Of a stretch of 64,000 nt of DNA, positions 5,816-36,623 are shown in pieces. Under the pieces are notes generated by a model that saw nothing but the letters and a program-made list of their open reading frames with translations, had not been told where the DNA came from and made no database searches. This DNA is from an uncultured bacterium (lineage in GTDB: Bacteria > Verrucomicrobiota > Lentisphaeria > Victivallales > UBA1829), in assembly GCA_949297765.1 (NCBI GenBank), contig CASFTV010000007.1:47260-111259 (forward strand), given 5' to 3'. The stretch's first letter is position 1. Each line of letters begins with the position of its first letter. Made by a program: the position numbers and the translations under genes.

Positions 5816-6682
5816 TCAGTCTTCGTCGGATTCAAAACGGCTCGTCCAGAACGGCGGCAGCACAAACGCCGCCTTGTGAACCGCCATGGAATACATCTTC
5901 AGACGGCGGACAAACGCTCCGATCGGACGCCGGAACGGAACATCCACCCGGTGATCGTCGCAGCCGATGCAGAATCCGAGCGAGCCGCCCGGATAACTCG
6001 GAATCGAACATGCGTAATATCCGCTGTATGCGAAAAGTTCGCGGAAAATCCGGCACTGGGTCTCCGTCACCGCCGGATGCAGAAGATACGATTCCGACTG
6101 TGAAACCAGAATGCCGCCCGGGCGCAGCGCGCGTTTGCAGTCCAGCAGAAATGCTTCCGTGAACAGAGCTTCGCCGGGGCCGATCGGATCGGGACCGTCC
6201 ACCAGCACCAGATCGTAGCTTGCCGCATGGCTCTTCACGAACAGGGCGCCGTCCTGAAAATGCAGCTCCACCCGCGGATCGTCCAGCGCCTTCCCGGTCC
6301 ACGGGAAAAAGCGGACACACTGATTCACGACCTCTTCATCCAGTTCGCACAGATCAATCTGCTCGATGCAGGAGTGCTTCAGCAGTTCCCGGACCACGCC
6401 GCCGTCCCCTCCCCCGATCACAAGAACCTTCTCCGGTTCCTCGTGGGTGAACGCCGGAACATGCGCAAACATCTCATGATAAATAAACTCATCCGATTCC
6501 GCCAGCTGGATTTTTCCATCCAGCGCAAGCATTTTTCCGAATCCCTCGCCCCGGAAGATTTCAAGGAGCTGATACTCGGTCTCCTCGGATGCGAGCACCT
6601 CCTGAATGCGGACGGACAGCGCACGGCCCGGCCACAGCGGACACTCCTCGGTAAAATACCCCTCCTTGAACACGTCGCTCAT
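5816..6682 (-). CDS. speE: Spermidine synthase (polyamine aminopropyltransferase)
   Basis: VLVIGGGDGGVVRELLKH and VDGPDPIGPGEALF motifs. Directly downstream of the AdoMetDC gene. Confidence 0.9.
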   Translation of the reverse strand: MSDVFKEGYFTEECPLWPGRALSVRIQEVLASEETEYQLLEIFRGEGFGKMLALDGKIQLAESDEFIYHEMFAHVPAFTHEEPEKVLVIGGGDGGVVRELLKHSCIEQIDLCELDEEVVNQCVRFFPWTGKALDDPRVELHFQDGALFVKSHAASYDLVLVDGPDPIGPGEALFTEAFLLDCKRALRPGGILVSQSESYLLHPAVTETQCRIFRELFAYSGYYACSIPSYPGGSLGFCIGCDDHRVDVPFRRPIGAFVRRLKMYSMAVHKAAFVLPPFWTSRFESDED

Positions 6683-9382: not shown

Positions 9383-11968
9383 ATGACACGGACATTCCCC
9401 CTTTCTCTCACATTCTGCGCGCTGCTGCTCGGAGGAACGCTGAGGGCCGCCCCGGACGCCGTTCCCGAGGGCTACCAGCCGTTCCCCCTGCAGTGGGACG
9501 ACACGCTCGCAGGAACCGCAACGGACGTTTCCTTCCTCAACGAAAAACCCGCCGGAAAAAACGGACGCCTGATCGTCCGCAATGGTCATTTCGCGGAAAG
9601 CGCCACCGGGAAACGGATCCGTCTGATCGGAATCGGGATCGGCGGCGATGCACTCTTCGAGATGGATCACGCGGCCGCGGAAAAGGTCGCGCGGCGTCTT
9701 GCAAAGGCCGGCGTCAACGTGGTCCGCTTCCACAATCTCGACGGTTCCGACCGCGACCGGGATACGCTCATTGACTTCAAACAGCCCGGGTCCGAACACT
9801 TCAATCTCAAACATCTCGACACGCTGGACTACTTTTTCGCCTGTCTGAAAAAAGAGGGGATCTACACCGTGATGGGCCTGAAGGTCAACCGGACCCTCCG
9901 GAACGGCGACGATCTCCCCGACGGCGTCAAAAAAGCCGGAAAACGGATCGACCGTTTCAACCGCGCATGGATCGAATCGCAGAAACGCTGGGCAAAGAAC
10001 CTTCTGACCCATCAGAATCCCTACACAAAGACGACTCTTGCGGAAGATCCCGCCGTTCTGAGCGTGGAACTCAACAACGAAAGTTCGCTTCTGTTCGAGA
10101 ATCTGAACTGGATCGACACGCTTCCCGCCCCCTATAAACGGGAGCTGACCGCACTCTGGAACGACTTTCTCTCCCGCCGCTACAAAACCGACAAAGCCCT
10201 CCTCGAAGCCTGGAACCGGGACACCATCCTTCCCGGCAGCTCCATTCTGAATCCGGAAGGCCGATGGACCTTTGAACAGCCGGACGCGCTGAATGTTCTC
10301 CGCAACAGCTCCGATTCGGTCTCGGCCGTTGTGAAACGCCGCAGCAGCCAGGACTGGCAGATTCAGTTCCAGCGCCCCGGACTCAGCCTTGAAAACGGAA
10401 AATCCTATACCCTGGAGTTCGATGCGCGCGGCGAAGGCGGACCGGTCCGCATCGTTCTGTCGCAGGACCGTCCCGAATGGCACAACTGCGGACTCGAAGC
10501 GACCTTCTCCCTCTCCCCCGGCTGGAAACATCACCGCTGCACCTTCCGGGCAAAGAATGCGGATCCCGGCCATGTCCGGATCTCGTTCGGCGTCGGGCAT
10601 GCGCGGAAGGCGGAAATCGCCGCGGTCCGCCTCTTTCCGGGGACGGAACCGGTTACCGCCCGCCTCTCCTCCGGCAATATTCCGCTTCCCGCCGCGCCGA
10701 ACGACGCCATGAGCGCCGATCTGCTGGACTTCATGGTCGAACTCGACACGCGCTATGCGGAGGAAATGCTGGATTACCTGCGGAAGGAACTCGGCCTGAA
10801 GAGCCTGGTGATCGACACTCAGATCGACTGGGGCGGACTTTCCGGACTCCGCCGGGAAAAACGGATGGACTATGTCGATGTCCACGCCTACTGGGGACAT
10901 CCGGAATTCACCGGGGGAAGCTGGGAATTCAAACCGGGATTCTGGAAGATTCTCAATCAGTCGCAGATTCCCCGAGTCGTACATGGCGGCTGGTGTCCGC
11001 TGGAGCAGTTCAGCCGCTACCGGATCCACACGAAACCTCTCTCCATTTCCGAGCACGACTATCCCTATCCGCACGACTATGCGGCGGAAATGATGCCGCT
11101 TCTGGTCAGTGTGGCTCTGCGGCAGGACTGGGACATGCTTCAGCTCTTCATTCACGGAACCTTCCTGACGCGCGGAAAATCCGCCGGCATCAGCCACATG
11201 TTCGATCAGACCAACCATCCCGGGAAAATCGGTTTTTTCCCGGCGGCGGCGCTGATCTTCCGGCGCGGCATGTTTGAACCGGCTCCGAGAGAGGTGGAAC
11301 TCCGTCTTCCGGAGACGCCGTGGCGCTGGTTCGGCAACCGTTTCGACCGGGCCTGGGCGGCGACCGGAGTCCGGCGGAATCTTCTGGACTCCCGGATGAC
11401 CATCGTCCCCGACGCGGTGAAAACTCCCGGACGAGTCGAAGCCTCGGTTTCCGCTCCCGATGAACCCCGCCGCCCGATGCGCGCATGGACCGAAGGAGAG
11501 AAAGCCTTCTTCACAGCGGTTGCCCCGCAGTGCATCGTTCTCTGCGGGCATTTCGGCGGACGGACAATGGACGTCGGCGATCTCCGTCTCCGGAGCCGTC
11601 CGTTCCCCGGCGATTTCGGAGCGGCGGTTCTGGTCTCCCGCGACGGGCATCCCCTTGCGGCTTCCTCCGACATTCTCTTCACAATCGCCGGCCGCTTCGA
11701 AAACTCCGGCGTCATCTGGAACAAGGAACGCAACGCCACCCTCAACCGCTCTCCGTGGTGGGGCAATCCTCCGGTTCTCGGCACAAAAACCGATGCGGAG
11801 GTCCGCTTCAGAACCGACGGTCCGCGCACGGTCTACGCTCTCGACTCCAACGGGAAGCGGACCGCGGAAGTTCCGTCCGCGTGGAAGGACAACCATCTCA
11901 CCTTCCATGTCCGTCCGGAACACCGTTCCATGCACTATGAAATCATCAGAGGAGGAAACCGCCGATGA
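9383..11968 (+). CDS. Secreted glycoside hydrolase, clan GH-A TIM-barrel type with an internal CBM-like insertion
   Basis: Signal peptide MTRTFPLSLTFCALLLGGTLRAAP. Motifs VNVVRFHNLD, VELNNES (acid/base NE) and SISEHDYP (candidate nucleophile). Homologous to the 31433..34504 product (GKxGRL, LKKEGIY, NPYT). Confidence 0.75.
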   Translation: MTRTFPLSLTFCALLLGGTLRAAPDAVPEGYQPFPLQWDDTLAGTATDVSFLNEKPAGKNGRLIVRNGHFAESATGKRIRLIGIGIGGDALFEMDHAAAEKVARRLAKAGVNVVRFHNLDGSDRDRDTLIDFKQPGSEHFNLKHLDTLDYFFACLKKEGIYTVMGLKVNRTLRNGDDLPDGVKKAGKRIDRFNRAWIESQKRWAKNLLTHQNPYTKTTLAEDPAVLSVELNNESSLLFENLNWIDTLPAPYKRELTALWNDFLSRRYKTDKALLEAWNRDTILPGSSILNPEGRWTFEQPDALNVLRNSSDSVSAVVKRRSSQDWQIQFQRPGLSLENGKSYTLEFDARGEGGPVRIVLSQDRPEWHNCGLEATFSLSPGWKHHRCTFRAKNADPGHVRISFGVGHARKAEIAAVRLFPGTEPVTARLSSGNIPLPAAPNDAMSADLLDFMVELDTRYAEEMLDYLRKELGLKSLVIDTQIDWGGLSGLRREKRMDYVDVHAYWGHPEFTGGSWEFKPGFWKILNQSQIPRVVHGGWCPLEQFSRYRIHTKPLSISEHDYPYPHDYAAEMMPLLVSVALRQDWDMLQLFIHGTFLTRGKSAGISHMFDQTNHPGKIGFFPAAALIFRRGMFEPAPREVELRLPETPWRWFGNRFDRAWAATGVRRNLLDSRMTIVPDAVKTPGRVEASVSAPDEPRRPMRAWTEGEKAFFTAVAPQCIVLCGHFGGRTMDVGDLRLRSRPFPGDFGAAVLVSRDGHPLAASSDILFTIAGRFENSGVIWNKERNATLNRSPWWGNPPVLGTKTDAEVRFRTDGPRTVYALDSNGKRTAEVPSAWKDNHLTFHVRPEHRSMHYEIIRGGNRR

Positions 11969-12999
11969 AAAGTCCCGCCCATCCGACCGGTGCTCTGAAA
12001 CGCATCGCCGAGGAAGCCGGCTGCTCCCCATCCACCGTAAGCCGGGTCCTCAACGGATGCCGGAAAGGCTTCTCGGTCCGCAAGGATCTGGAAGAACGCA
12101 TCCGCGCCGTTGCCGCCGCCTCCCACTACCAGCCGAATCCGTTTCTGAGGATCATGCGGGCAAAGGATTCCAGACTCATCGCGATCTTCGATCCGGTCCA
12201 CGACCTCTCGCCGATACTCGGACAGGCGAAAACCGCTTTTATTTCGACGATCCGGCAGAAAGGATTTCTGGAGACCGGAAAATACGTTTCGCTCTATCAG
12301 AAAGATTCCTATACGCTCCCCTTCCCTGTCGCGGCGGCGCTTCTGTTTGACATCAGCGATCCATCGTTTCTCTCGTTTCTGGAGGAACTTGGCATTCCCT
12401 ACACGGTCATCAACGGGATGTGCCGTTCCGGCGGAGCCTCGGTGCAGATCGACGAAGAACGGCACATGCACTCCGCTCTGGACTGTCTCTGCGAAAAAGG
12501 ACACACCCGCATCGCCTTCTACGCCGCCCACAGGGATGCGGGAACCCGCCATCAGCATTACTCCGGCATTCTGCGGGAAAAATACTTTCATGCGGAACTT
12601 GCCGCCCGCGGACTGCCCGAACCGCCGGAAGCGCTCGCGGATCTGCTGGACCCCGCCGAATATCTCATGCGGATCCGGAAGGAGTTTCAGCCGACGGCAA
12701 TCCTCTGCTACGATCATGTCCGGGCGGTCGGGATCATGACCGCGGCAATCCAGGCGGGACTCCGCCTCCCGGAGGATCTTTCGCTGCTTTCCATGACAGA
12801 CGACTTCCCCCTCGGCCAGCTTCCGATGCCGATCGCGGCATTCTCTCTTTTCGCCGCCCGGCTCGGAGAATGCGCCGCCGGACAGCTCTTCCGCCTTCTG
12901 GAGGAAACGCTCCCGGAAACGGAGCGGACCGTTCTCATCCGCGGACGTCTCCAGAAACGCCGCAGCATCGCCGAACCGAAAAAACAAATTTCCAAATGA
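11965..12999 (+). CDS. LacI family transcriptional regulator
   Basis: N-terminal [24 protein letters not shown] plus a PBP1-type sugar-binding body. ATGA overlap with the GH stop. Confidence 0.9.
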
Positions 13000-13013
13000 A
13001 AGGACCTGTCTTT

Positions 13014-13742
13014 ATGAAAATCCGTCATTTCACCCTTGTGGAACTCCTCGTTGTAATTGCGATCATCGCGATCCTTGCGGGGCTGCTTCTTCCCGCGCTG
13101 AATCAGGCGCGCGCCAAAGCCAGAACCATCAGCTGCGCCGGAAATCTGAAGCAGTTCGGCACCGCAACCACTCTCTACGCGAACGATTCCGCCGATTACG
13201 TTCCGCCTCTTTTCAACGCCACCAACTGGAAGGAGATCTGGAGCGCCAACACCGCGTTTTACGACGCGGGCGGAATCAAATGGGACAACACCCGTATGCC
13301 CAACGAATACAGCTACGGCTACGTCGCCCGCGGAATTCTCTGCGCGGAATCGGGACACATCCGGAAATCCCGCGATCCCTACGGATTCATCAACGCCGTC
13401 TACGGACGCAATGAACATCTTCCGACCAGCAACGGCTATGTGTGCGCCAAACTCACCCAGATCAAAGGCTCCTCGCACAAGCTCAACATGATGGACGCGA
13501 CCGTCCACTCCGTCGCCTACGGTCTGAGCCACTATCCGACCCGCTATGCGCAGGCCCTCGCCCAGGGCGGCGAAGACTTCTGGAACTCCTCCACCCGCGG
13601 AACGGCGTACCGGCACAGCGGAAGAACCAACGCGAACTTCTACGACGGACACGTCGAGCTCCTCCAGTGGACCAAAATCAACTACAACACCGACAACTCC
13701 TACAGCGGAGACAAAATTCAGAAATATTACTGGGAAATGTAA
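13014..13742 (+). CDS. Prepilin-type N-terminal domain protein with C-terminal H-X9-DG motif (DUF1559-like pseudopilin)
   Basis: [49 protein letters not shown], and C-terminal [14 protein letters not shown] (H-X9-DG). The alternative in-frame ATG at 12996 would give an ATGA overlap with the LacI stop. The track ORF 12420..13742 is a 5' over-extension. Confidence 0.85.
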
Positions 13743-22041: not shown

Positions 22042-22905
22042 TCAAAGCAGAAAAGGGATCGCTCCGGGGCCGCGGCGATCCAGATCTCCCGAAGCCAGTT
22101 CCATATTCAGCTCGTGCAGAATCCCTTCCCGGTCCTTCGGGAAACGTCCGGCCAGCGGAAGCGGATTCGACGCATGGTTCGCCCGGAAAACAGTCCGGTC
22201 CAGCTCCAGGCGCGCCACGATCTCCCGCAGTTCCTCCACCGCTTCATATTCCGTAACAGGGGTGTATCCGGATGGAAACGGAAGCCCGGGAATCGGGATG
22301 AAGCGAAGGGCCGAAAGCAGATCCGGCTGCATCCGGTTCAAAGCCTCGGCGGTCTGTTCGATGTGCTCCTTTCGAAGCTCCTTTCCGCCCAGTCCGGTCA
22401 GAATCATGACCGAAGATTTCAGCCCCGCATCCCGGAGCAGTCTTACCGCCCGGACCATCCCTTCAACCTGTTCCGTTTTTCCGAACCGGTCCAGGACGTT
22501 CTGGGAGCCGCTCTCCAGCCCCATATAGAGGGTGTGAAGGCGGAGGTTTTTCAACTCCGCCAGCTCCGCCGGGCCTTTCGCCAGAATCGAGCTGCCGTTC
22601 GCATAGGAATTGATCCGGGCAAGACGCGGAAATGCGGCATTCAGCTCCCGCAGGATTTCCTTCAACCGATCCGCCGGAAGATACAGGACATCGCCGTCCG
22701 CCAGGAAAATCCGTCCGGTCGAGGGAAACTCGCGGCCGGCTTCCCGGATCTCCGCAGAAAACTCCTCCGGATCACGGAGTTCATAGCGGACTCCTTTGTA
22801 CATCCCGCAGAAGCGGCAGGAATTGTGCGGGCAGCCGAAAGCCACTTGAAAAATCAGGCTCTCCGCCTCGGCAGGCGGGCGAAACAGAGGTTCTCTCAAT
22901 TTCAT
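22042..22905 (-). CDS. Radical SAM domain protein, unassigned subfamily
   Basis: RPPAEAESLIFQVAFGCPHNSCRFCGMY near the N-terminus, a Cys triad with C-x4-C-x2-C spacing as read. TIM-barrel-like remainder (GLESGSQ). Confidence 0.75.
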   Translation of the reverse strand: MKLREPLFRPPAEAESLIFQVAFGCPHNSCRFCGMYKGVRYELRDPEEFSAEIREAGREFPSTGRIFLADGDVLYLPADRLKEILRELNAAFPRLARINSYANGSSILAKGPAELAELKNLRLHTLYMGLESGSQNVLDRFGKTEQVEGMVRAVRLLRDAGLKSSVMILTGLGGKELRKEHIEQTAEALNRMQPDLLSALRFIPIPGLPFPSGYTPVTEYEAVEELREIVARLELDRTVFRANHASNPLPLAGRFPKDREGILHELNMELASGDLDRRGPGAIPFLL

Positions 22906-22981: not shown

Positions 22982-23078
22982 CGGGAGAGTTTCGTGCTCC
23001 GCACGACCAGCGTTTCGCCGCTGGACCGCGACAAGGACAGAGTCCTTGACCCGGGAAAACCGCGGGTGCGGTTTCCCC
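22982..23078 (+). repeat. Multi-hairpin repeat element, copy A
   Basis: GAGTTTCG-[CGTGC TCC GCACG]-A-[CCAGCG ... CGCTGG]-ACCGCGA-[CAAGGAC AGA GTCCTTG]-...-[GGGAAAACCGC GGGT GCGGTTTCCCC]. Same architecture as the copies at 30173 and 31282, with compensatory stem changes. Confidence 0.65.
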
Positions 23079-23309
23079 GTATCGGAGGGGGGATGTTTAA
23101 AAATGAGTTTTTTTTCGGAAAAGGGATTGCAAATATCAGGACGGGGGGTAAAGTACTCCTTAGAAAGGCATTTTTCGCCGAAAACCCCTAAAGGCTGTGA
23201 ACGTTAGGATTGTCAGACAAGTTTGAATGAACGCTGCAGGAACGATCAGCAGACTCAAAACGGACCCAACTGAAAAAACCAACACTCAACCGGAAGCCTG
23301 ATTCACATC

Positions 23310-25127
23310 ATGAACAACAAAGACCTGACGCATTTTAAACAACTGTATCAATTCGTCAAACCGTACAAGAGCATGCTGGAGATCTGTATTATTTTTCATA
23401 TCTGCAGCACCTGTCTCGGACTGCTGATGCCGCTGGTGCTGAAGATCATCATCGACAAGGCGCTGGGCGGATCGGATCTTCGATTGCTGTTTGTTCTTCT
23501 CGGAGCGGTCATTGTGCTGTACTGGGTCCGGGCGTTTTTCTTTTACACGAGCAATTATTTTACGCATTATCCGATTCAGCGGATGCTGTTTGATCTGCGG
23601 GTGAAGCTGTTCAAGCATCTTCAGAGTCTTTCGCTGCGGTTTTATCAGGAGTACCGGACAGGAAAACTGATTTCCAATATTCTGACGGATGTGGCGGCGC
23701 TGCAGGCGATGATCTCCACCGTGATCGTGGGAATGGCCTCCAGCATGTTCCAGCTGCTGTTTGTGGGAGTGATGCTGGTGTTTCTGAGTCCGACTCTTTC
23801 GCTGATCTGTCTGTTTGTGCTCCCGGTGGTGTACTTTGTGTTTTCGTCGTTCCGGAAGATGCTCAAGCAGCGTTCCCAGATGCTGCGGGAACACATGTCG
23901 GAGGTGTCGGCGAATCTGGCGGAGGTCATCAACGGGATCAAGGTGGTGAAATCGTTCGGGAAGGAGCGGTCGGAAAACCGGATGTTCATGGAGCGTCTGA
24001 AACCGACCTTCGATATGTCGCTGACGCTGTCGATGCGGTCGATCGCGCTGACGATTGTCATGGATCAGCTTTCGATCTACACGCTGGTGGCGGTCCTCGG
24101 AGTGGGAGGATATCTGGTGTCGATCGGACGGATGACGATCGGAGAACTGGTCGCGTTCTATACTTATATTCAGATGTTTTTCAATCCCGTCGCGACCATG
24201 ACAAACTTCGCGCCCGCGATCAGCGAAGGTGCGGTCAGCGCGGACCGGCTGCTGAAACTTATGGATACTATGCCGGAGATCAAGGAGAAGGAAAATCCGG
24301 TCCGGCTCGGCCATGCGCGCGGCGAGGTCCGCTTTGAGAATGTCTGCTTCCACTACCAGCCGAACAAACCGATTCTGCAGGATTTCTCGCTGGACATCCA
24401 GCCGGGACTGAAGGTGGCGCTGGTCGGGCCGTCCGGTTCGGGAAAATCGACCATCGCAAGTCTTCTGATGCGCTTCTTCGACGTCACACGCGGACACATT
24501 CTGCTGGACGGCGTGGATATCCGCGATCTCAGCATCAACTCTCTCCGCAGCAACATCGGCATTGTTCTTCAGGAGTCGTTCCTCTTCAGCGGAACCATTG
24601 AGGAGAACATCCGGTACGGAAAGGACAACACGTCGTTCGAAGAGATTGTCGAAGCGGCAAAAATGGCGAATGCGTATGAATTCATCCGGGATCTGCCGAA
24701 CGGATTCAAATCGGAGGTTGGAGAAAACGGCGTCTCGCTCTCCGGGGGACAGAAGCAGCGCATTGCAATCGCGCGGACCGTTCTGCACAATCCCTCGGTC
24801 CTGATCCTCGACGAGGCGACCAGCGCGCTGGACACCATTTCCGAAGCGGTCGTTCAGCACGCGCTGGACAAACTGATGGCGGGACGGACCACGATCATTA
24901 TTGCGCACCGTCTTTCCACGGTCCGCAACGCGGATTTGATCGTCGTGCTCAAAGACGGCAGGATTGTTCAGACCGGGCAGCATGAACAGCTGCTTTGTCA
25001 GGACGGTCCCTACCGGACGCTCTATGCCATGCAGCTCAAAGAGCAGCATGATCCCGATGAGGCGCAGAACTATCAGGCGGGCCGATTCGCATCCACCGGA
25101 ACCAATCAGGAGGCTTCCCAATTATGA
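23310..25127 (+). CDS. ABC exporter, fused permease/ATPase (MsbA/type-1 exporter fold)
   Basis: Six N-terminal TMs. Walker A GPSGSGKST, signature LSGGQKQRIAIAR and Walker B LILDEATSALD. No N-terminal C39 peptidase domain. Confidence 0.9.
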   Translation: MNNKDLTHFKQLYQFVKPYKSMLEICIIFHICSTCLGLLMPLVLKIIIDKALGGSDLRLLFVLLGAVIVLYWVRAFFFYTSNYFTHYPIQRMLFDLRVKLFKHLQSLSLRFYQEYRTGKLISNILTDVAALQAMISTVIVGMASSMFQLLFVGVMLVFLSPTLSLICLFVLPVVYFVFSSFRKMLKQRSQMLREHMSEVSANLAEVINGIKVVKSFGKERSENRMFMERLKPTFDMSLTLSMRSIALTIVMDQLSIYTLVAVLGVGGYLVSIGRMTIGELVAFYTYIQMFFNPVATMTNFAPAISEGAVSADRLLKLMDTMPEIKEKENPVRLGHARGEVRFENVCFHYQPNKPILQDFSLDIQPGLKVALVGPSGSGKSTIASLLMRFFDVTRGHILLDGVDIRDLSINSLRSNIGIVLQESFLFSGTIEENIRYGKDNTSFEEIVEAAKMANAYEFIRDLPNGFKSEVGENGVSLSGGQKQRIAIARTVLHNPSVLILDEATSALDTISEAVVQHALDKLMAGRTTIIIAHRLSTVRNADLIVVLKDGRIVQTGQHEQLLCQDGPYRTLYAMQLKEQHDPDEAQNYQAGRFASTGTNQEASQL

Positions 25128-28302: not shown

Positions 28303-29355
28303 ATGACAGAGATTGTTCCAGAATATCTGCGTGTGCGAAAATATCTCTATGATCTTGTTTACCGGAACGACGGCAGGGATCTGCGGATTCCGCCGGAAAA
28401 CGAGCTGGCGCGTCTTTTCGGCGTGAGCCGGGTCACGGTCCGGAGCGCGATCCGCGGACTGGTGGATGACAGCATTCTTGTTTCGCGCCGGGGACTCGGA
28501 ACCTTCATCAATCCGGATGCGATCCGGAAAGACTGCCGGAGACTTCCGGTCATCGGCATTCTTTTCGGCGACGGACGCCAGACGTATCTCCCAACGGACC
28601 AGCAGATTTCCGCCGCCGTTCAGAACTCCGGCATGCTGGCGGAAGCGCTCCACACCCCCGACTCCGGCGCTCCGGAGCGGCTGGTCGAAATCATCCGCGA
28701 CAACATTGCCGCCGTGATCTGGCAGCTGCCGTCCCGAAAGATGGAACCCTTTTTCCGTGCCATCCGGGCCGCCGGGAAACCTCTGCTGATTTACGGAAAC
28801 GGTTTTGAAAACGAATTTGACACCATCCGGAACGCCTGTGCGGAGCGCGGCATTCTTCTGGCGGAACATCTAGCCCGGATGGGGCATCGGCATCTTCTTT
28901 ACATCCACAATGCCCTCTCTTCCGAGATCGACCGGCCCGAATCGCCGGAAACGACCTCCGGAAGTTTCGCCCGCCGGATCCGCAAGCTCACAGGAGCGAA
29001 ATTTGACGGATTCCTTTCTCTGAACGAACTGGACGAACGTCTCTCCCGGCGGGGGCTCGGGAAGTATACGGTTCTTTATTCCTCCGCGACACTTGTCCGC
29101 CCGATTCTGGAAATTCTGGAACGGGAACACATCCGCATCCCGGAGGATCTTTCCTGTATCACGGCCTGGAAACCGCTCTCCTTTTTCTTTCAGGGGCGCT
29201 CTTCCGCGTATCTGGACTGTGACTGCAATCTTCCTGAACTCGTTGCGGAATGGATCCAGCGAAAAGTTCTCAACGGGGAAAAGGAGATTTTTCTGCGGAC
29301 TCCGGAATCCATTCTCCACGAAGGCGAAACCTTGATTCCGAATACGAAACCTTGA
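28303..29355 (+). CDS. GntR-type HTH regulator fused to a PBP1 (LacI-like) sugar-binding domain
   Basis: Trimmed to the ATG at 28303 ([19 protein letters not shown]). HTH is [31 protein letters not shown]. Confidence 0.85.
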
Positions 29356-29364
29356 TTCCGAATA
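29325..29364 (+). repeat. Perfect tandem duplication, 2 x 20 bp CGAAACCTTGATTCCGAATA
   Basis: Read directly. Spans the last codons and the stop of the GntR gene. The stop TGA (29353-29355) lies in copy 2. Confidence 0.95.
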
Positions 29365-29383
29365 CATGAAAAGGAGAACATTT

Positions 29384-30148
29384 ATGAAACGGATATTTTC
29401 ATTGATCGAGCTTTTAGTTGTTGTTGCAGTAATCTCAATTCTTATTTCTCTTCTTATTCCGGCCTTGAACGGGGCAAGAGGGAAAGCGTACGAACTGAGC
29501 TGCAAATCCAATTTGAAGATGATCGGGACGGCATCCGCGTCCTACAGCGCCGACAACAACGACTGGATCGTCTATGTCTACGATTCCGCATGGATGGCGA
29601 ACTGGCGCGTCGAGGATTACTGGACAGGGAAACTGCGTCCCTACGGGCTCCGGCACGGGAAGGACCTGACGGAATGCAGGAATCCAGAAATTACCTCCTC
29701 GTTCCGCTGTCCCGGATATTCGGACTGGCGGACAGCAGAAGATCCCGCGACAGCCGGCTACTTTCTTTCCACCTCTTCCCAATATTCTCTCAGCCCCTAT
29801 CTCTGCGGGCGGCACACCAGCGCGCTCAATCAGAGTTATGCGCATAAGAATACGGATTTGCAAACACCAAGTCAGGCACTCTTCGCAGGAGAGAGTCTTC
29901 TTTCTCTTGATTCCCTGCAGGGAACGTATTCGTTGTATTACAGGCATGGCGGCGGAGATCCCCGTCCGAAGACTTCCGATACGGTGTATAATGATTATCT
30001 CTCGTTTATTCCCGGAAAGGCCAATGTCGTTTATGCGGACGGTCATGTTGCAGTTCGCACATACCGTCTGGATGAAAACCGCTGGCTGCCGCTGACCAAG
30101 AACGGGTTTTACGGAAATTCCAACACCAGCCGGGGATCCAGGCTGTAA
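29384..30148 (+). CDS. Prepilin-type N-terminal domain protein, DUF1559/H-X9-DG-like pseudopilin
   Basis: ATG at 29384 after an [57 protein letters not shown]-terminal RHGGG...[13 protein letters not shown], where the H..DG spacing is expanded to about 30 residues. Confidence 0.85.
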
Positions 30149-30172
30149 GGGAATGGGGGGTGGAAGACGGGG

Positions 30173-30275
30173 TGGGGAGTTTCGCCCTTCGGGCGACCAG
30201 CGTATTCCGCTGGACCGAAGCAGGTCAAAGACCTGCACCGAGCCTGCGGCTCCTGCCCTGCGGGCGGTTTTTTTT
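30173..30275 (+). repeat. Multi-hairpin repeat element, copy B; 3' hairpin plus T8 acts as terminator of the pilin gene
   Basis: GAGTTTCG-[CGCCC TTC GGGCG]-A-[CCAGCG TATTC CGCTGG]-ACCGAA-[GCAGGTC AAA GACCTGC]-ACC-[GAGCC TGC GGCTC]-CT-[GCCC TGC GGGC]-GG-T8. Confidence 0.7.
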
Positions 30276-30386
30276 AGTTTTTTGTATATGTTTTTAGTTA
30301 TTGGAATGTTTTTTTCGGAGAGAAGAGAGTTTTTTCTGTCGGGTCGGGTATAGTATGGGAGAACCATCCAACGGAAAGGATTGAAA

Positions 30387-31277
30387 ATGAAAGAATTTCA
30401 GGTGAAAGACCATGCGGAGAGTTTTCTGCCGGAAGACAAAAACTGGAAACTGGTCTGGAGTGATGAATTCGACGGCACGGAACTGGATCGCAGCAAATGG
30501 GGATTTCGTCTTAATTTCTGGGGAAAACGTTTTCCCGCCTTCACGGACGAGGGAGTTGTGCTGGACGGGAAAAGTCATCTCCAGCTGCATCTTCTGAAGA
30601 AGGACGGGATTTTCTGTTCCCCGCATCTTCAGACGGGTTCTCTGACGTATGATATTCCGAAGGATTCTAATGGATTCTGGCCGTTCGGGAAATATGAAGA
30701 ACCGAAATTCATGCACAAATTCGGCTATTATGAGATTCGCTGCCGTCTTCCGAAATGCGATGGATGGCATTCGGCGTTCTGGCTCCAGTCCCCTTCCGTG
30801 GGTGCGCATCCGGATCCGAGACGTGCCGGAGTCGAATGCGACATCATGGAAAACTACCGGCAGTACAAGGACGGCAAACTCATCGGCGGCAATCTCTGGG
30901 GAGGCTACGGCAAAAACTACAAAGGTTCCGGCCATTTCTCCTGGGACTGGCAGGAAACGGAAGACGGATGGCACTACTACGGCGTTGACTGGAGTCCCGA
31001 CGGCTACCGCTTCTATGCAGACAGAAAACTCATTGGTGTCGTTCTTCCTCCGGAGAAGGCCCATCTGAAGCAAATCGTCAAAGAAAAAGAAGGGTCCAGC
31101 TTCCTGCGGGAAGGCAGCATCAGTGTCGGCCCGGTCTCGGAAACAGAACAATTCATTCTGATCTCCACAGAATGCCATGGCTACCGGGAAACAGGAACCT
31201 ATACACCTCTCCTGGACCAGGCGGTCCTCCCCGATTACTTTGAAATTGACCACGTCCGCGTGTTCGACAAAGTCTGA
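30387..31277 (+). CDS. GH16-like (ConA-like lectin/glucanase fold) glycoside hydrolase, paralog A, no signal peptide
   Basis: ATG at 30387; the track start at 30381 is TTG. LVWSDEFDG, YGYYEIRCRLP and the catalytic-type motif GVECDIME (ExDxxE). Confidence 0.8.
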   Translation: MKEFQVKDHAESFLPEDKNWKLVWSDEFDGTELDRSKWGFRLNFWGKRFPAFTDEGVVLDGKSHLQLHLLKKDGIFCSPHLQTGSLTYDIPKDSNGFWPFGKYEEPKFMHKFGYYEIRCRLPKCDGWHSAFWLQSPSVGAHPDPRRAGVECDIMENYRQYKDGKLIGGNLWGGYGKNYKGSGHFSWDWQETEDGWHYYGVDWSPDGYRFYADRKLIGVVLPPEKAHLKQIVKEKEGSSFLREGSISVGPVSETEQFILISTECHGYRETGTYTPLLDQAVLPDYFEIDHVRVFDKV

Positions 31278-31281
31278 TCCC

Positions 31282-31373
31282 CTCGCCCGAAGGGCAGGAG
31301 CCGAAGGCTCGGTGCAGGTCTCCGACCTGCTTCGGTCCAGCGGAATACGCCGGTCGCCCGAAGGGCGAATCCA
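31282..31373 (-). repeat. Multi-hairpin repeat element, copy C (inverted relative to copy B)
   Basis: The reverse complement aligns to copy B with about 5 differences. All lie in loops, except one that makes a G.U pair (CCGGCG/CGCTGG) on the minus-strand reading. Confidence 0.7.
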
Positions 31374-31375
31374 TC

Positions 31376-31421
31376 ACAAACAAAACGCGCTTCCCGGAAG
31401 CCTCCATTCTCCCGGGAAGCG
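31376..31421 (-). terminator. Rho-independent terminator after the 1023-aa GH gene
   Basis: On the minus strand: a CGCTTCCCGG ... CCGGGAAGCG 10-bp stem followed by CGTTTTGTTTG. Confidence 0.6.
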
Positions 31422-31432
31422 AGCTTTCACAT

Positions 31433-34400
31433 TCATTCCAGGACCAGTTCAAAGAAAGGAGTCGGACCATATCGAAGTGCAGCGGTATCCAGATGAACCC
31501 GCACGCCGTCCGGCGAGGACGTAAGCGCAACTTCCTCCCGGCGACTGCCGTTGATTCCAAGCGCATGGAGTTTCCAACTTCCGTGACGGCGAATGCTCAG
31601 TTCCAGAATCCCGGTCCGGGCAAGAGCCGGAGCGGATCCGATGGAGAAAAGAGTTGCGCGATTTGCTGCAAGACACATTCCGCTGTTTGCCTCTTCCGTC
31701 AGGAACAGAATCACGATTCTGCGGCTTTGGGAAAGCGGCATTCCATCAACGGAACAAAGAGCAATGCAGCCGTTTACGGAGTTCCGTCTCACGGCAAACG
31801 TTTTCAAATCCGCCACCCCTCCCGCCGTCATGCACACAGCCTCTGAGCGGGGAGTAATGATGCTCATCCGCTTTTCTCCGGCACGGAGAATCAATTCCAG
31901 CGTATCACTCTGGAAAATTCCCTTTTCCGGATCGGAAATATTTTGTGGAGAAAGGATTCCTTTTCTTTTCATTTCCTTCACTATGCGTGAGAGGGAAAAG
32001 ATTCCGCTGCCGGATTCCGCAAACTGGGAAAACCAGTCCTGCGCCTGAATTTCAGAGCTTCCGGAGATCGGGATCATCAGATCGGTCCTTGGATGCGCCG
32101 ACGTTCCCTGAGCGGCGGGTCTCTCCGGGAAGACAAGTCCATAGCCGGCAAGAAGACCGAGACTGGCCTGAGAGGCGGAAACCGCTTTCTCCGCATGGGA
32201 ACCTCGCTTCAGAAATTCGTTCGGCACCATCACAGAGAGCAGATGCGGAGAGGGCTTCACATCGCCTCGCTGAAACAGACACGCCATCAGGAACTGCGAA
32301 GCGCGCAGCAGCGGGGAATTTCCGACTCCGAAGCAGGAGATCTTTTCCATTTTCGTCTCGTTGAGCAGAACCGGAAGCGCATGAACTTCCAGAGCACCAT
32401 ATCCCTGAAGAGCGGAATAACCGCCGAATACCATTCCGGATTCATAGCGGAAGGGGTTCCAGAAACAGTGATTGTATTCTCCGACCAGGAAGGGGCGACC
32501 AGCCAGTTTCGTTGAATTTGCCTCCTTCCAGTATCCGGTTTTCTCTTCGATGGAGCTGCTTGCCCCGACAATGGACCCCCTCTGCATCCAGTGCGTGGGA
32601 TGGTTGAAATAGGCGTGGCCGTCGACGACCTGGGAGCATGTCCATCGGGCGGCGGAGTGACCAAGATTTTTGGATGCGCTGTAATTGCTGACCAGTCCAC
32701 GGTAACCGGTCTTCCGAATGATCTCTTCGCACCGCTTTGCAACAGCTTCCGCGCGATCCATCCAGAAGAGGGCGAAATCATTGGCGCCCCTGTCATCATC
32801 CGTTCCGGCAGTCAAAGGGATTTCCGCATCGGGCATGGATTTCCCATATTTTTTTGCGAGCCACGCGCGCCAGAACGTCAACAGCCGTTCGCGGACTTCC
32901 GAATCGGTCCGCAGCAGATTCTGCATCTGCCCCTTCAGGAGTCCCATAGCCTGTTCGTTATAATATTCGACCCAGGCGATCGCAGGCTCATCCTTCCAGG
33001 CCAGACCGGTATAGGGATTCACATGGTTGAAGAGCGTATTGACCGCATAGCGGAAATGGTTCATCTCCCATTCGCCTTCGAGATACATCATCAGCTTATG
33101 CCGGTTTCGGTCCTTGTAGACGTCGATTCCCGATTTCTGATACAGATGGAAGGAAAAGATCACCAGATGAAGATAGATCCCCTCCTTTTTCAGTTCGGAA
33201 ACCAGATAATCCCAACGATCCAGATAACGGGGATTGATAGACATATCTTCTTTCGAACCGTGACAGAGCCAGCGGTCCAGAAGTCCATGCACACGAAAGA
33301 GCCGATATCCCTGTCGTCGTGCAGCTCGGGCGAAACGTCCGGCCCGCTCCCGGAACAGAGCATCGGATTCCGATTCGAAAAGCCCTTTTGCTTCATTGAA
33401 CCCCAGCATCCGGACAGGCTGATCGGGAGTGTCTTCAAACACGAGTTTGCCCTCTTCCGATATGGTGAGGCGGCCCGATTTTCCGGCAGGCGCCTCCACC
33501 TGTCCGGAAAGATCCAGTGCGGAACCCGGCAGAATCTCCGGTGCCGTCATCTGATATTGTTTCCATCCATTTCTCCCATTCCGGAAAACGACGGGCTCGC
33601 GCGGAGCGCCGCAGCAGAATCCCCATCCACCCGATCCGGCCCGAACAACGGCGACCAGCAGATTTTCCCCTTTCTTCACCGGGAAATCCTCAAAGCAGTG
33701 ATCCGGAGAAAACGGCTTGGTACCCGTGGAGGAAAGAACCCGAACTCCGTTCAGATAGATGTCAAAGAACCAGTCTGCGGAAAATCCGATCCGCATCACC
33801 CCCTCTTTCCGGCTCTGGAAACGGTTGTAAAGGACCGCAACGGAGCGATCCGGCTGAAATTTCCAGGAATTATATTTTCGGAAATCAATCCCCTTGTCCG
33901 TCATGAGAACTCGGAGCGGACTTTTTCCATTCAGGCGTTCCGGAATCCGATCGAGCACCGAAGGACCTTTTACATCGCAGAAAATGGTCCATTCGGAGGA
34001 GAGGGCAAACGGAATTCCGGGAACCTCCTCCAGACGGATGGCGGAAAACGTGCTTTTCCCGGGAAGACGGCAGAAGTTGAACGTCATCAGTCCTGGGGCG
34101 CCATCGGTTGACCGGGCGACGAACTCCGTTTTCAGCGAATGCGTCCCGGCATCCAGCGTCCAGTTTTCCGCCAGACCGCAGGGATTGTACGGACTCTTCG
34201 CCTTTTGATAAACCGCGCGGAAGACCCCTTTTTCCCGGCATTCGATCCGGAATGAAAGCCGGTACCGCTTCCCTGGTTGGAGCATGACGGATTGACTCAG
34301 CAGGCCCCCTCCGCCATAGGGGGAAAGATCGCGGGGGACATTGGCTGCCAGAGATTTTCCAACTGCCTGAAACACGCGTGAGTTTCCCGACCATTCGGCG

Positions 34401-34504
34401 ATTCCACGCGAGAAATCGGTATTTTTCAGAAGATTTTCTTCCGTCCATCCTCTTCCGGCCAGCAGAAGCAAGACGAGGACTGGCAATAAACGGGATACAA
34501 TCAT
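31433..34504 (-). CDS. Secreted multidomain glycoside hydrolase (N-terminal CBM-like domain plus clan GH-A barrel), paralogous family to 9383..11968
   Basis: Trimmed to the ATG at 34504 (MIVSRLLPVLVLLLLAGRGWTEEN signal). WVEYYNEQ (acid/base NE) and FLVGEYNHC (candidate nucleophile). Shares GKSGRL, LKKEGIY and NPYT with the 9383 product. Confidence 0.75.
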   Translation of the reverse strand: MIVSRLLPVLVLLLLAGRGWTEENLLKNTDFSRGIAEWSGNSRVFQAVGKSLAANVPRDLSPYGGGGLLSQSVMLQPGKRYRLSFRIECREKGVFRAVYQKAKSPYNPCGLAENWTLDAGTHSLKTEFVARSTDGAPGLMTFNFCRLPGKSTFSAIRLEEVPGIPFALSSEWTIFCDVKGPSVLDRIPERLNGKSPLRVLMTDKGIDFRKYNSWKFQPDRSVAVLYNRFQSRKEGVMRIGFSADWFFDIYLNGVRVLSSTGTKPFSPDHCFEDFPVKKGENLLVAVVRAGSGGWGFCCGAPREPVVFRNGRNGWKQYQMTAPEILPGSALDLSGQVEAPAGKSGRLTISEEGKLVFEDTPDQPVRMLGFNEAKGLFESESDALFRERAGRFARAARRQGYRLFRVHGLLDRWLCHGSKEDMSINPRYLDRWDYLVSELKKEGIYLHLVIFSFHLYQKSGIDVYKDRNRHKLMMYLEGEWEMNHFRYAVNTLFNHVNPYTGLAWKDEPAIAWVEYYNEQAMGLLKGQMQNLLRTDSEVRERLLTFWRAWLAKKYGKSMPDAEIPLTAGTDDDRGANDFALFWMDRAEAVAKRCEEIIRKTGYRGLVSNYSASKNLGHSAARWTCSQVVDGHAYFNHPTHWMQRGSIVGASSSIEEKTGYWKEANSTKLAGRPFLVGEYNHCFWNPFRYESGMVFGGYSALQGYGALEVHALPVLLNETKMEKISCFGVGNSPLLRASQFLMACLFQRGDVKPSPHLLSVMVPNEFLKRGSHAEKAVSASQASLGLLAGYGLVFPERPAAQGTSAHPRTDLMIPISGSSEIQAQDWFSQFAESGSGIFSLSRIVKEMKRKGILSPQNISDPEKGIFQSDTLELILRAGEKRMSIITPRSEAVCMTAGGVADLKTFAVRRNSVNGCIALCSVDGMPLSQSRRIVILFLTEEANSGMCLAANRATLFSIGSAPALARTGILELSIRRHGSWKLHALGINGSRREEVALTSSPDGVRVHLDTAALRYGPTPFFELVLE

Positions 34505-34544
34505 GCAAGGATCCTTTCTTTTTCTATCGGTGTTTCGATTGAAT

Positions 34545-35321
34545 TCAGTAAATTTTGATTCCGTCCCGGCTGTATATCCCGTCGGTCCGGACGTTCGACC
34601 GGTCGACAAGATCACTGACATTCGCGGAACGGGCACTTCCGTCGAGCGTCAGGATATTGGCCCGTCCGGTATGCAGAAGAGCGATTTTCCCGTCTCCGGA
34701 AGCGATATAGTTCATCATATGCTTTCCTGCGCTTGAAGCCGATGCTGAAGAGCCGGCATAGATGCTGTCTGCCAGCAGAATGGTGAGTGAAGGCTGCTTC
34801 ACCGGAAGATAAGCCGCTCCGGATCTCCCGATCCGGCTGCGTTTCACCAGAGTTCTCGGGTTCCAGGCAGTGCTGAGATAAGAGTTCATCCCGTAGGTCT
34901 GGCGGCCGGCCGGATTGACATAGGCGCTCTCCGACGGCGTGTATGGAAAGGATGGGCAGTTGAACACTTTCATTTGTGCCGCCTTCCGGGTTTCTGACAC
35001 GCTGGAATCCTCAAACAGCGCCCGTTGTGATGGAACGGAATGGAGAAACAGGATGGTCGCATAGGTGTATCCCGAATACCAGTCCGTTCCGGAAGACATC
35101 TCGAAACCGTTTCCTTTTGGGGAATTCGGCGGCGGAATGAAATCATCGAAATCATTGGCATAATTTTCAAAGAACACGCCACACTGTTTCAAATGGGAAG
35201 TACAGTTGATCGCTTTTGCTTTTTCCCGGGATTTCCCCAGAGCCGGAAGCAGAAGAGCTATAAGGATCGCAAGGACTGCTATTACGATCAGCAATTCTAT
35301 AAGAGTAAAAATATTTCGCAT
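34545..35321 (-). CDS. Prepilin-type N-terminal domain protein with H-X9-DG motif (pseudopilin)
   Basis: Trimmed to the ATG at 35321. [49 protein letters not shown]-terminal [14 protein letters not shown] is H-X9-DG. Confidence 0.85.
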
Positions 35322-35483: not shown

Positions 35484-36383
35484 TCAGATTTCATCAAAAA
35501 CGCGGACATGATCCACTTCAAAGAAGTCCGGAAAATTCACGGTTTCCAGAAGGGGATCATGCTGTCCGTTTTCGCGATATCCATGACACTCCGTGGAGAC
35601 GAGTATAAACTGCTCGGCATCGGAGATCGGTCCGACGGCGACTCCTCCTTCCTTCAGCCAGCAGGGGTTGTCTTCCTGTTCCCGGACTGCGGTTTTCCGA
35701 TCGGCGTATTCCGGCGGGACGATGGTACCGACCAGTTTCCGATCGGCAAAGAAGCGGTAGCCGTCGGGACTCCAGTCAACGCCGTAGTAGTGCCATCCAT
35801 CTTCCGTTTCCTTCCAATCCCAGGAGAAATGTCCGGAGAAGGCATGGGATTTTCCATACCCGTTCCAATGATTTCCGGCGACAACTTTGCCATCACCGCA
35901 GATGCGGCAGCTTTCCATGATGTCGCATTCGACCCCGGCATGTCGCGGATCCGGATGCGCTCCGACGGAAGGCGACTGAAGCCAGAACGCGGCATGCCAT
36001 CCGCATCCGCCGGATTTCGGCAGACGGCAGCGGATCTCGTAATAGCCATATTTATGCATGAATCTCGGCTGTTCCAGCTCGCCGAAGGGCCAGAATCCGT
36101 CAGAGTCCTTCGGGAGATCGTATGTGAGAGAACCGGTCTGGAGATGCGGGGAGTAAAAATCGTTTCCCTTCCGGATCAGATGAAGACGCAGATGGCTGTT
36201 GCCATCAAGTTCAACGCCCTCCGTAGTGAATGTCGGGAAACGTTTCCCCCAGAAATTAAGACGAAATCCCCATTTGCTGCGATCCAGTTCCGTGCCGTCG
36301 AATTCATCACTCCAGACCAGTTTCCAGTTTTTGTCTTCCGGCAGATAACTCTCTGCATGATTTTCCAGTTTGAATAATTTCAT
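35484..36383 (-). CDS. GH16-like glycoside hydrolase, paralog B, no signal peptide
   Basis: Trimmed to the ATG at 36383 (MKLFKLENHAESYLPEDKNWKLVWSDEFDG). GVECDIME motif. About three quarters of residues are identical to paralog A by eye. Confidence 0.8.
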   Translation of the reverse strand: MKLFKLENHAESYLPEDKNWKLVWSDEFDGTELDRSKWGFRLNFWGKRFPTFTTEGVELDGNSHLRLHLIRKGNDFYSPHLQTGSLTYDLPKDSDGFWPFGELEQPRFMHKYGYYEIRCRLPKSGGCGWHAAFWLQSPSVGAHPDPRHAGVECDIMESCRICGDGKVVAGNHWNGYGKSHAFSGHFSWDWKETEDGWHYYGVDWSPDGYRFFADRKLVGTIVPPEYADRKTAVREQEDNPCWLKEGGVAVGPISDAEQFILVSTECHGYRENGQHDPLLETVNFPDFFEVDHVRVFDEI

Positions 36384-36483
36384 TGAATTCCTTTCTTTCG
36401 ATTTCTTTGATATCGACAGCATACATGGAAGTTCTCGATGCGCAGCGGCTTTCATCCGATCTCCCGATTCTGTGCCGAATTTC

Positions 36484-36497
36484 TGTATAATTATACA
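36484..36497. promoter_or_regulatory. Perfect 14-bp palindrome TGTATAATTATACA containing TATAAT on both strands
   Basis: Read directly. Lies in the divergent GH16B / AraC intergenic region. The -35 matches on both sides are poor. Confidence 0.35.
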
Positions 36498-36623
36498 CTT
36501 TTTTTTCCGTTCTGCATAGAGGATTTCTGCCAAATAAACAGTAATTTTCTGCCATTTATGATTGATTTTTCTAAAATGAAGGATAAATTGAATTAAAACT
36601 TAAAAAGATGTTGGGATAAATGA

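Follow-up and report, generated by a model that had tools for sequence, protein, structure and literature searches.

Three copies of one hairpin layout in the window

What is the row of hairpins at positions 22982–23079 of this DNA: a structured RNA, or a repeat maintained at the DNA level? The initial annotation had read it as one of three copies of a family that could be either a structured RNA or a REP-like element. In the window, by which we mean the whole 64-kb stretch that was analysed, all three were seen in the sequence where they had been placed: copy A at 22982–23078 and copy B at 30173–30275, both on the plus strand, and copy C at 31282–31373 on the minus strand. A scan of the whole window with a covariance model built from related sequences (R1, filters off) returned exactly these three, with E-values from 7e-20 to 6e-10 (A, 22987–23051, 89.5 bits; B, 30177–30239, 59.4 bits; C, 31311–31373, 48.1 bits). 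Since the next-best match in the window scored only 14 bits, the three lie far beyond chance.

The layout described for the copies also holds: (GAG)TTTCG, hairpin 1 (P1), a single A, CCAGCG-loop-CGCTGG (P2), ACCG, hairpin 3 (P3) and one or two more hairpins. Copy A is of type I. Its 5' motif TTTCG overlaps P1 (together 22990–23005, plus strand), and P1 itself, CGTGC-TCC-GCACG at 22993–23005 in the covariance-model alignment, covaries family-wide. The near-invariant P2 follows at 23007–23024 as CCAGCG-TTTCGC-CGCTGG, with CGA on its 5' side and ACCG on its 3' side, and P3, CAAGGAC-AGA-GTCCTTG, whose helix also covaries, occupies 23032–23051 together with a conserved ACC. The terminal hairpin at 23052–23079, CGGGAAAACCGC-GGGT-GCGGTTTCCCCG, pairs an A-tract with a T-tract and represents the 3' module of type I. 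Copies B and C are of type II. In copy B, P2 is CCAGCG-TATTC-CGCTGG (30197–30213, plus strand, from the sequence and the covariance model), and the terminal hairpin P5 (30253–30275, plus strand) is CTGCCC-TGC-GGGCGG followed by 8 T, the form of an intrinsic terminator; the terminator-like site proper spans 30253–30267, with the T-run after it. In copy C, P2 is CCGGCG-TATTC-CGCTGG (31337–31353, minus strand), whose stem includes a single G.U pair when read on the listed strand. Copy B has its own T-run; copies A and C have none.

Copies B and C are near-identical and copy A has diverged, with the layout common to all three. Between A and B/C, hairpin 1 changes from CGTGC/GCACG to CGCCC/GGGCG, altered on both sides at 2 pairs, and hairpin 3 from CAAGGAC/GTCCTTG to GCAGGTC/GACCTGC, with 3 two-sided changes in a register that the covariance-model alignment backs. 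Across the core, B and C differ at 5 positions, of which 4 are in loops and 1 is an A-to-G change in P2 that creates the G.U pair on the listed strand. All three copies fold into the predicted row of hairpins, and the two strands are about equally stable, as RNA and as DNA.

Selection on a peptide had been disfavoured from the start, and our results agree. The ORFs overlapping the copies score negative on codon usage (for example, −43 for 29435–30367), and the indels between copies are not multiples of three and so shift the frame; we therefore rejected a coding repeat or small peptide. The GC-rich composition and the long shadow ORFs over the copies are what might suggest chance, low complexity or the remnants of a peptide-coding repeat. 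We regard any such origin as negligible in view of the negative coding scores and frame-shifting indels, the E-values given above against at most 14 bits elsewhere in the window, the 91 matches in related genomes and the excess of descriptor matches over reversed sequence (98 to 12) described below.

Covariation without a favoured strand

Pairs were counted in a model-based alignment of 86 distinct copies, which is fitted to the model and in which copies from one cluster or genome are non-independent observations. The compensatory change reported between the window copies proved very strong across the family: standard pairs occupied 96.4% of cells against 75.0% after shuffling (0 of 500 shuffles reached the observed value), and slid registers gave only 28–36% pairing. 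The covariation score was 0.474, compared with 0.103 in the control. Two-sided changes were found in 296 cells, where 86 were expected, and one-sided changes in 9. Two-sided changes affect 11 of the 18 pairs; all 7 P3 pairs and three P1 pairs covary, and compensated variation in P2 is confined to the loop-closing pair (G-C, n = 73; U-A, n = 12).

The tolerance of G.U on the listed strand alone had been taken as a sign of strand preference. An RNA read from one strand is expected to tolerate G.U but not A.C. Nearly all pairs in the family are Watson-Crick, and the mismatches, counted without the innermost P3 pair, which is alignment-sensitive, comprised 10 G.U, 8 A.C and 7 other cells. Because G.U and A.C are equally common, no strand is favoured; for the same reason the single G.U pair in copy C is no evidence for a preferred strand, and the earlier claim fails on this point.

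Loops are the most variable positions, both within one genome and at the same locus in two species, and the family alignment holds no conserved single-stranded stretch of seed length. From the symmetric mismatches, the variable loops and the two-sided changes, it follows that hairpin formation is conserved on either strand, together with the sequence of P2 and a few junction nucleotides. A need for both DNA strands, or transcripts off either one, to fold may be what keeps the stems Watson-Crick. Pairing may also be maintained in part by hairpin-templated correction of quasi-palindromes, a process known from template-switch mutagenesis.

A modular family in Victivallales

Loci were collected, at one genome per species, with the P2-based pattern CGACCRGCGT-N(3-7)-CGCTGGACCG. 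The scan gave at least 109 loci, at least about 60 of them in Victivallales/Lentisphaeria, where the type strain Victivallis vadensis DSM 14823 is represented; the remaining pattern matches among those listed are scattered chance ones in GC-rich coding sequence. R1 found 91 matches in 522 kb of related loci, so the expectation of further copies was borne out. Single metagenome-assembled genomes carry at least 7–8 copies in the few 8-kb tiles fetched from them, and copy numbers sampled in such tiles are lower bounds.

The family core is about 65 nt long and reads RR-TTTCG, P1, CG followed by an A or a C, P2, ACCG, P3 and ACC. P1 has CG at both its opening and its close, with variable inner pairs and loop, and P3 is variable across the family. 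P2, in contrast to the stems that vary, is near-invariant as CCAGC(G/T), a 4–7-nt loop and (C/A)GCTGG, flanked by CGA and ACCG; this invariance is partly an ascertainment effect, because the loci were fetched by the P2 pattern and R1 encodes P2. A descriptor scan without a fixed P2 sequence gave 98 matches, compared with 12 in reversed-sequence controls, and among them only one alternative P2 allele, CCAGCT...AGCTGG, a compensated change from G-C to T-A. A closing stem between TTTCG and a downstream CGARA was considered and dropped, as it occurs in some subtypes only.

Modules 3' of the core set the subtypes apart, and the terminal hairpins often carry a T-run. Type I copies share with copy A the module GAAAAATGC-loop-GCATTTTTCCG, and at least 8 loci have U1, another module about 120 nt long, 5' of a type I copy. 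Type II, as in B and C, has P4 and P5, the latter mirroring P1. Type III ends in a GC hairpin with a T-run; its core is often, but not always, preceded by a conserved 5' module of 115 nt or more. Type IV is about 165 nt long and has two extra covarying hairpins. Compared with a classical REP, the unit is much bigger and more complex, and an order-level clade retains its architecture and junction nucleotides, as would be expected of a functional RNA; both observations run against a repeat reading.

Searches for a known RNA family returned nothing. At the gathering threshold, Rfam 15 had 0 matches in the whole window; around A, B and C, matches at E ≤ 10 were chance ones of 11–20 bits against cut-offs of 40–93; and 16 related loci gave nothing but a tRNA. 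The literature searched on Lentisphaerae or Victivallis yielded no such repeats. The family appears to be undescribed, although its kind, interspersed extragenic palindromes, is familiar.

Outside cellular genomes, the viral collection IMG/VR held one true copy (L115), and the phage and plasmid collections searched held no copy. Bacillota loci with the exact P2 string were set aside as chance or unrelated: there the string lies beside iteron-like tandem repeats, without P1 or P3. Distribution among relatives is patchy: a total of 413 kb surrounding 41 metagenomic relatives of the GH16 glycoside hydrolase gene, the gene found beside copies B and C, contained just 1 copy.

Genes around the copies

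Gene calls rest on ORF lists, an ad hoc codon-usage caller and translations read in the manner of Pfam. The window belongs to the core chromosome and contains secY and a ribosomal-protein operon; no transposase was found among the genes read in it. Copy A lies in a divergent intergenic region between a radical-SAM gene (22042–22905, minus strand) and an ABC-transporter gene (23310–25127, plus strand), and a promoter-like site facing the radical-SAM gene is about 10 nt away. Copy B begins 25 nt past the stop of a prepilin-like gene of the H-X9-DG type (29366–30148, plus strand), and the GH16 gene starts about 110 nt downstream of it. Copy C points toward the 3' end of the GH16 gene and is wedged between the GH16 stop at 31277 (plus strand) and the intrinsic terminator of a gene for 1067 aa (31433–34636, minus strand); the hairpin and T-rich tail of this terminator (31388–31421, minus strand) lie directly upstream of copy C and outside the element. 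The source is a metagenome strain of gut or rumen type. Copy A is present in other assemblies of this strain, one contig of which stops inside P2, as is expected at repeats. At L047, a type II copy lies upstream of a GH16 ortholog in the position and orientation of copy B; the two differ in their loops and at one compensated P2 pair.

Tabulation against gene 3' ends, which the initial annotation had called for, showed enrichment there and between convergent genes. For the 57 copies with both neighbours called, the context was convergent in 26, co-directional in 28 and divergent in 3, copy A among the last; intergenic regions in the background of the same loci were convergent in 44, co-directional in 112 and divergent in 41. 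Convergent intergenic regions thus carry an excess of elements, and divergent promoter regions carry few. In 29 of 49 cases, the stop codon of a convergent gene adjoins the 3' end of the element; an upstream stop adjoins its 5' end in only 9 of 42. The gene downstream of the element is usually convergent with it (opposite strand in 49 of the 66 callable copies), which led us to reject a riboswitch or 5' leader.

In co-directional contexts, 13 copies are sense and 15 antisense, so orientation is unbiased. Pfam supports the flanking genes in several antisense cases, such as the two back-to-back copies within a cobalamin operon at L100; calls beyond these Pfam-checked cases rest on the ad hoc caller. 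This result divides the original proposal of a structured RNA or REP-like element. The family is real, it covaries and it has no Rfam match, but orientation-independence speaks against the RNA reading and favours the DNA-level option, a REP- or MITE-like repeat.

Copies also cluster. At least 2 copies were found in 19 of 65 tiles, and the 20 adjacent pairs less than 500 nt apart comprise 10 tandem, 7 divergent and 3 convergent ones. L047 is a mosaic of type II (plus), type I (minus) and type II (plus); L070 has three type II copies in tandem; L104 reads type I, U1 module, type I; and doublets of types I and II occur at L010, L040, L050 and L097. In V. vadensis, a partial copy that starts within P2 lies beside a full one. 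The flanks of different copies are mutually unrelated.

The single copy found near the GH16 relatives, an ortholog-like one at L127, is 97% identical to copy A, and the neighbouring genes are just 75–82% identical. Gene order is rearranged between the two: the window has an ATPase, the radical-SAM gene and copy A, and L127 has a Cu-ATPase, the element and GH16. A search for empty sites with exact proteins recovered contigs of the same strain only and no clean empty site; the GH16 relatives show presence/absence differences in rearranged contexts, without exact boundaries.

Transcription signals and RNA-level explanations

By strict criteria, 25 of 79 copies have a hairpin and T-run after the core on the element strand; against a background of 6%, 5 of 79 have one on the opposite strand. 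These terminator modules sit at a fixed distance, 31–49 nt past the core. An oriented terminator module suggests that the elements are probably transcribed and probably act in cis as RNA hairpins.

Signals for initiation were sought upstream. Conservation starts sharply at RR-TTTCG. No family-wide promoter was found: upstream composition is flat, and no offset shows an excess of −10-like motifs. On their own strands, A, B and C have no sigma-70-like site upstream, by a consensus that may not be the phylum's, and no consistent sigma-54 or sigma-70 motif was found upstream of the copies. Some type I copies have TATAAA-like hexamers 5–6 nt before TTTCG, within the U1 module. The space upstream is usually 100–600 nt.

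These signals bear directly on the strongest competitor of a DNA-level repeat, namely that the copies are multicopy, independently transcribed structured small RNAs of about 100–170 nt, whose P2 and junctions bind a protein (as a sponge or RNP) and which end at their own terminator. We judge this somewhat unlikely, and the evidence pulls both ways. The sharp 5' boundary at TTTCG, the terminators that are oriented with the element 31–49 nt past the core (that of copy B being canonical) and the usual 100–600 nt of room upstream with the 3' end abutting the neighbour all fit an independent transcription unit, as do the TATAAA-like hexamers before some type I copies; moreover, every stem but P2 covaries, and the junction nucleotides are kept across many species. 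Against this, no family-wide promoter signal was found, nor one upstream of A, B or C; copy C sits directly behind a strong terminator and copy B within an apparent operon; the loops, which vary most, leave no conserved single-stranded seed; and G.U pairs are nearly absent and do not exceed A.C, which would be unusual for so diverse an RNA family. Occurrence within operons in either orientation, as among the L100 cobalamin genes, the tandem and inverted mosaic clusters with one partial copy, and the patchy presence among relatives also count against small RNAs.

A second RNA-level explanation holds that the copies are purely cis-acting modules (terminators, insulators or 3' stabilisers), selected site by site and spread by local duplication with no dedicated machinery. 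Enrichment at gene 3' ends and in convergent regions, depletion from promoter regions, the terminator-like 3' modules and the stacked GC-rich hairpins that fold on both strands are all as this explanation would have it. It leaves unexplained, however, why P2 and the junctions are invariant while other stems vary, and why near-identical copies occur in unrelated contexts and species, as with A and the L127 copy (97%, with neighbours at 75–82%). In addition, A and C lack T-runs, C stands behind an existing terminator, and antisense copies could not terminate the operon that flanks them. We consider this explanation improbable.

A DNA-level repeat as the favoured reading

The reading we favour, with a probability of roughly 0.55, assigns A, B and C to an interspersed family of modular palindromic repeats that is extragenic, specific to Victivallales and similar in organisation to REP/BIME or BOX elements. 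Besides the outcome of the orientation test, several observations speak for a DNA-level repeat: clusters are mosaics, the Watson-Crick stems have symmetric mismatches, loops are hypervariable, no promoter was found and relatives carry the family patchily. The unit is the three-hairpin core of about 65 nt with type-specific 3' hairpins, often of terminator form, and with 5' extension modules in some genomes. Copies would multiply and turn over at the DNA level; they lie in unrelated contexts, in either orientation, singly or in clusters, and are tolerated mostly at the 3' ends of genes. We infer mobility indirectly, since type I copies have neither terminal inverted repeats nor target-site duplications and no clean empty site was recovered.

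The invariant P2 with its asymmetric flanks CGA and ACCG is a putative recognition site for a trans-acting protein. This could be a transposase or recombinase of the Y1/HUH (RAYT-like) kind that binds hairpins, or a structure-specific protein of the host, and whichever protein spreads or maintains the copies would presumably be hairpin-specific. When transcribed, the array may act in cis as a terminator or as a block to 3' exonucleases, as E. coli REPs do; a role as terminator or 3' protector is suggested by this analogy with REPs and by the oriented T-runs. Going further, one could view the core as the cis substrate of an undescribed mobilisation or RNA-protein system of Victivallales/Lentisphaerota, with P2 (CGA-CCAGCG...CGCTGG-ACCG) as its handle, an idea that we regard as doubtful. 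Such a substrate might take two possible forms, either hairpin-recognising transposition that carries terminators to gene ends or a multicopy structured RNA used from both strands.

Victivallales are an under-studied, mostly uncultured lineage of gut and rumen, and many of their structured intergenic segments trace to the family. It also explains contig breaks, and its copies are otherwise prone to being miscalled as sRNAs or ORFs. Because copies lie at synteny breakpoints, as between the window and L127, they may mark or promote rearrangement of polysaccharide-utilisation cassettes, which dominate these genomes. An invariant hairpin next to covarying neighbours, scarce G.U pairs and a portable terminator make the family a clean system in which to study how palindromes are recognised, spread and kept paired. 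Since the cultured host V. vadensis DSM 14823 carries copies, these questions are experimentally testable.

Comparison with known repeat systems

MITEs are defined by terminal inverted repeats and target-site duplications. The ends of type I copies (RTTTCG ... GCATTTTTCCGT) are not inverted repeats, and their flanks have no target-site duplication. Some type II copies end in GATTTCGCCC ... GGGCGAAATC, again without a target-site duplication.

In REPIN-RAYT systems, the genome carries a cognate RAYT (Y1 transposase) gene that is typically flanked by REPs. A search of the fetched 8-kb tiles by tblastn, with E. coli RAYT and IS200 TnpA sequences as queries, gave only a spurious match to a NIF3-like gene. 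A RAYT gene was also considered between the divergent pair of V. vadensis, whose copies are 600 nt apart, and no such ORF exists there. The proteins that recur beside copies are the products of abundant prepilin-like and LacI-type genes and nothing else. What the family has in common with REPIN-RAYT systems is a conserved hairpin with asymmetric flanks as a plausible protein site, a consensus shared within a genome and inverted doublets (10 of the 20 adjacent pairs here). It differs in that about 0.5 Mb of DNA around the copies yielded no RAYT/Y1 transposase gene, in that the doublets pair type I with type II and would not form a single long hairpin, and in that tandem arrays are equally common. 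A REP is an imperfect palindrome of about 20–40 nt with a conserved 5' GTAG/GTGG tetranucleotide. The present family has no GTAG tag; its conserved flanks are TTTCG, CGA, ACCG and ACC, and its unit is at least 65 nt long with three hairpins. Membership in REP/RAYT proper is therefore not supported, given that there is no GTAG-tagged short palindrome, no RAYT gene in the sampled DNA and no terminal inverted repeat or target-site duplication in type I.

The BOX elements of Streptococcus pneumoniae and the Correia elements (CREE/NEMIS) of Neisseria are likewise intergenic, 100–200 nt long, modular and highly structured. They too have an unknown or trans-acting mobiliser and can lend terminators or processing sites to adjacent transcripts. 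No homology to either is known, and the order boxA-boxB-boxC is absent here; terminal inverted repeats and a TA duplication characterise Correia elements but are missing from type I copies in Victivallales. With palindromic elements derived from IS200/IS605, the family shares the lack of terminal inverted repeats and target duplications and the presence of hairpins near the ends, and the P1 and P5 of type II are near-identical hairpins at both ends. In contrast to those elements, no TnpA/TnpB partner or conserved cleavage tetranucleotide was found, and A, B and C occupy both strands within 8 kb.

The REP/BIME elements of enterobacteria offer the closest set of likenesses and some clear differences; the BOX, Correia and IS200/IS605-derived elements are looser analogues. 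A REP unit is a single palindrome of 35–40 nt, whereas the Victivallales unit is a 65-nt core of three hairpins with extra hairpins; the sequences are not similar, and the GTAG tag is missing; a single hairpin, P2, is invariant and the others vary freely; many copies carry their own oriented T-run terminator; and no REPs described in Lentisphaerota were found in the literature. Both families, on the other hand, consist of many extragenic copies that lie mainly at gene 3' ends, including those between convergent genes, in either orientation and with compensatory changes in their stems. Both also form BIME-like mosaic clusters, in which repeat types (here the subtypes) are mixed in alternating orientation with other conserved short modules, and they likely share their cis effects on transcripts, namely termination and 3' protection.

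Subtypes and Variants of the Repeat Family

Within the repeat family, type IV copies are about 165 nt long and occur at 6475-6640 of the related locus L005, as well as in four other fetched loci (L072, L088, L102 and L106). Downstream of the core, these copies carry a long AT-rich hairpin, then a further hairpin, the arms of which read AATATTGC/GCAATATT versus AAATCGC/GCGATTT. Both of these extra hairpins covary between MAGs, and the sequences flanking type IV copies bear no relation to one another. A different variation affects P2 in the copy at L034 5142-5222 (+), where an extra hairpin is inserted into the loop (ACCAGCG-CGGGTACGACCCG-CTGCGACTGACTGCTGG); insertions in the P2 loop can therefore be tolerated.

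In V. vadensis DSM 14823 (NZ_QEKH01000013.1; L016 4155-4215), a partial copy lies directly after a full copy, starts inside the P2 3' arm (GCTGGACCGCG...) and retains its own P3 and terminator, an arrangement suggestive of breakage or recombination inside P2. In window copy A (22982-23078, +), the P2 loop is the point at which one contig from another assembly of the same strain ends (start of L111). A second same-strain contig (L112, ~115) carries an A-to-T SNP in the P2 5' arm of this copy, breaking one pair.

U1 (gagcctttgcg...cgcaaaggcgtcaaaagtttagggaaagaggggagcgcgaggggagaagaaccgcttttcaaagcggtttgctcctctcgcatttttt), about 120 nt in length, is a second conserved repeat module and occurs in several MAGs. 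It lies directly upstream of type I copies at L003 6150-6270 and in seven further loci (L009, L026, L055, L091, L092, L099 and L104). U1 contains hairpins of its own and ends in a TATAAA-like hexamer; it had no match in Rfam.

Genomic Neighbourhood

The commonest neighbours of repeat copies are cassettes of a LacI/GntR-type regulator and a prepilin-like gene (N-terminal FTLIELLVV), found at 11965-13742 and 28303-30148 of the window and in 14 related loci. These cassettes recur close to glycoside hydrolases, and their proximity to the repeats probably reflects nothing more than their abundance in these genomes.

Two GH16 paralogs, 4 kb apart, are encoded at 35484-36533 (-) and 30381-31277 (+). 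Since GH16 is immediately preceded in relatives (L124-L126) by a homolog of the 1067-aa gene (31433-34636, -) encoded on the same strand as GH16, the region has been rearranged between related genomes. The probable start codon of the (+) paralog is the ATG at 30387 (MKEFQV...) rather than the TTG at 30381, as both the alignment to the L047 ortholog and blastn begin at this ATG and an exact-protein look-up of the TTG-start form found nothing.

Copies and Matches on Other Contigs

One genuine type IV-like copy (n=1) is located at L115 8922-8946 (-) on IMGVR_UViG_3300042268_000693, a contig classed as viral that may be a Victivallales prophage or misclassified. Another genuine member (L028 597-664, -; 63.5 bits) sits at the end of CAADVD010000026.1, from a MAG labelled Ruminococcaceae; this contig is likely mis-binned Victivallales rather than a case of horizontal transfer.

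The exact P2 string, GACCAGCG-TAGCA-CGCTGGACCG, was also found in Bacillota/Oscillospiraceae MAGs (L007 ~4300-4420, -; L031; L038 1600-1745; L017), upstream of a gene start. There it adjoins a hairpin (CAAGGGG...CCCCTTGACCC) as well as an array of iteron-like GTCAAGGGATAAG tandem repeats. P1 and P3 are absent from these sites, which have the motif CCTTGACCC in common with the end of type I P3. The Bacillota string is probably unrelated to the repeat family or a chance match.
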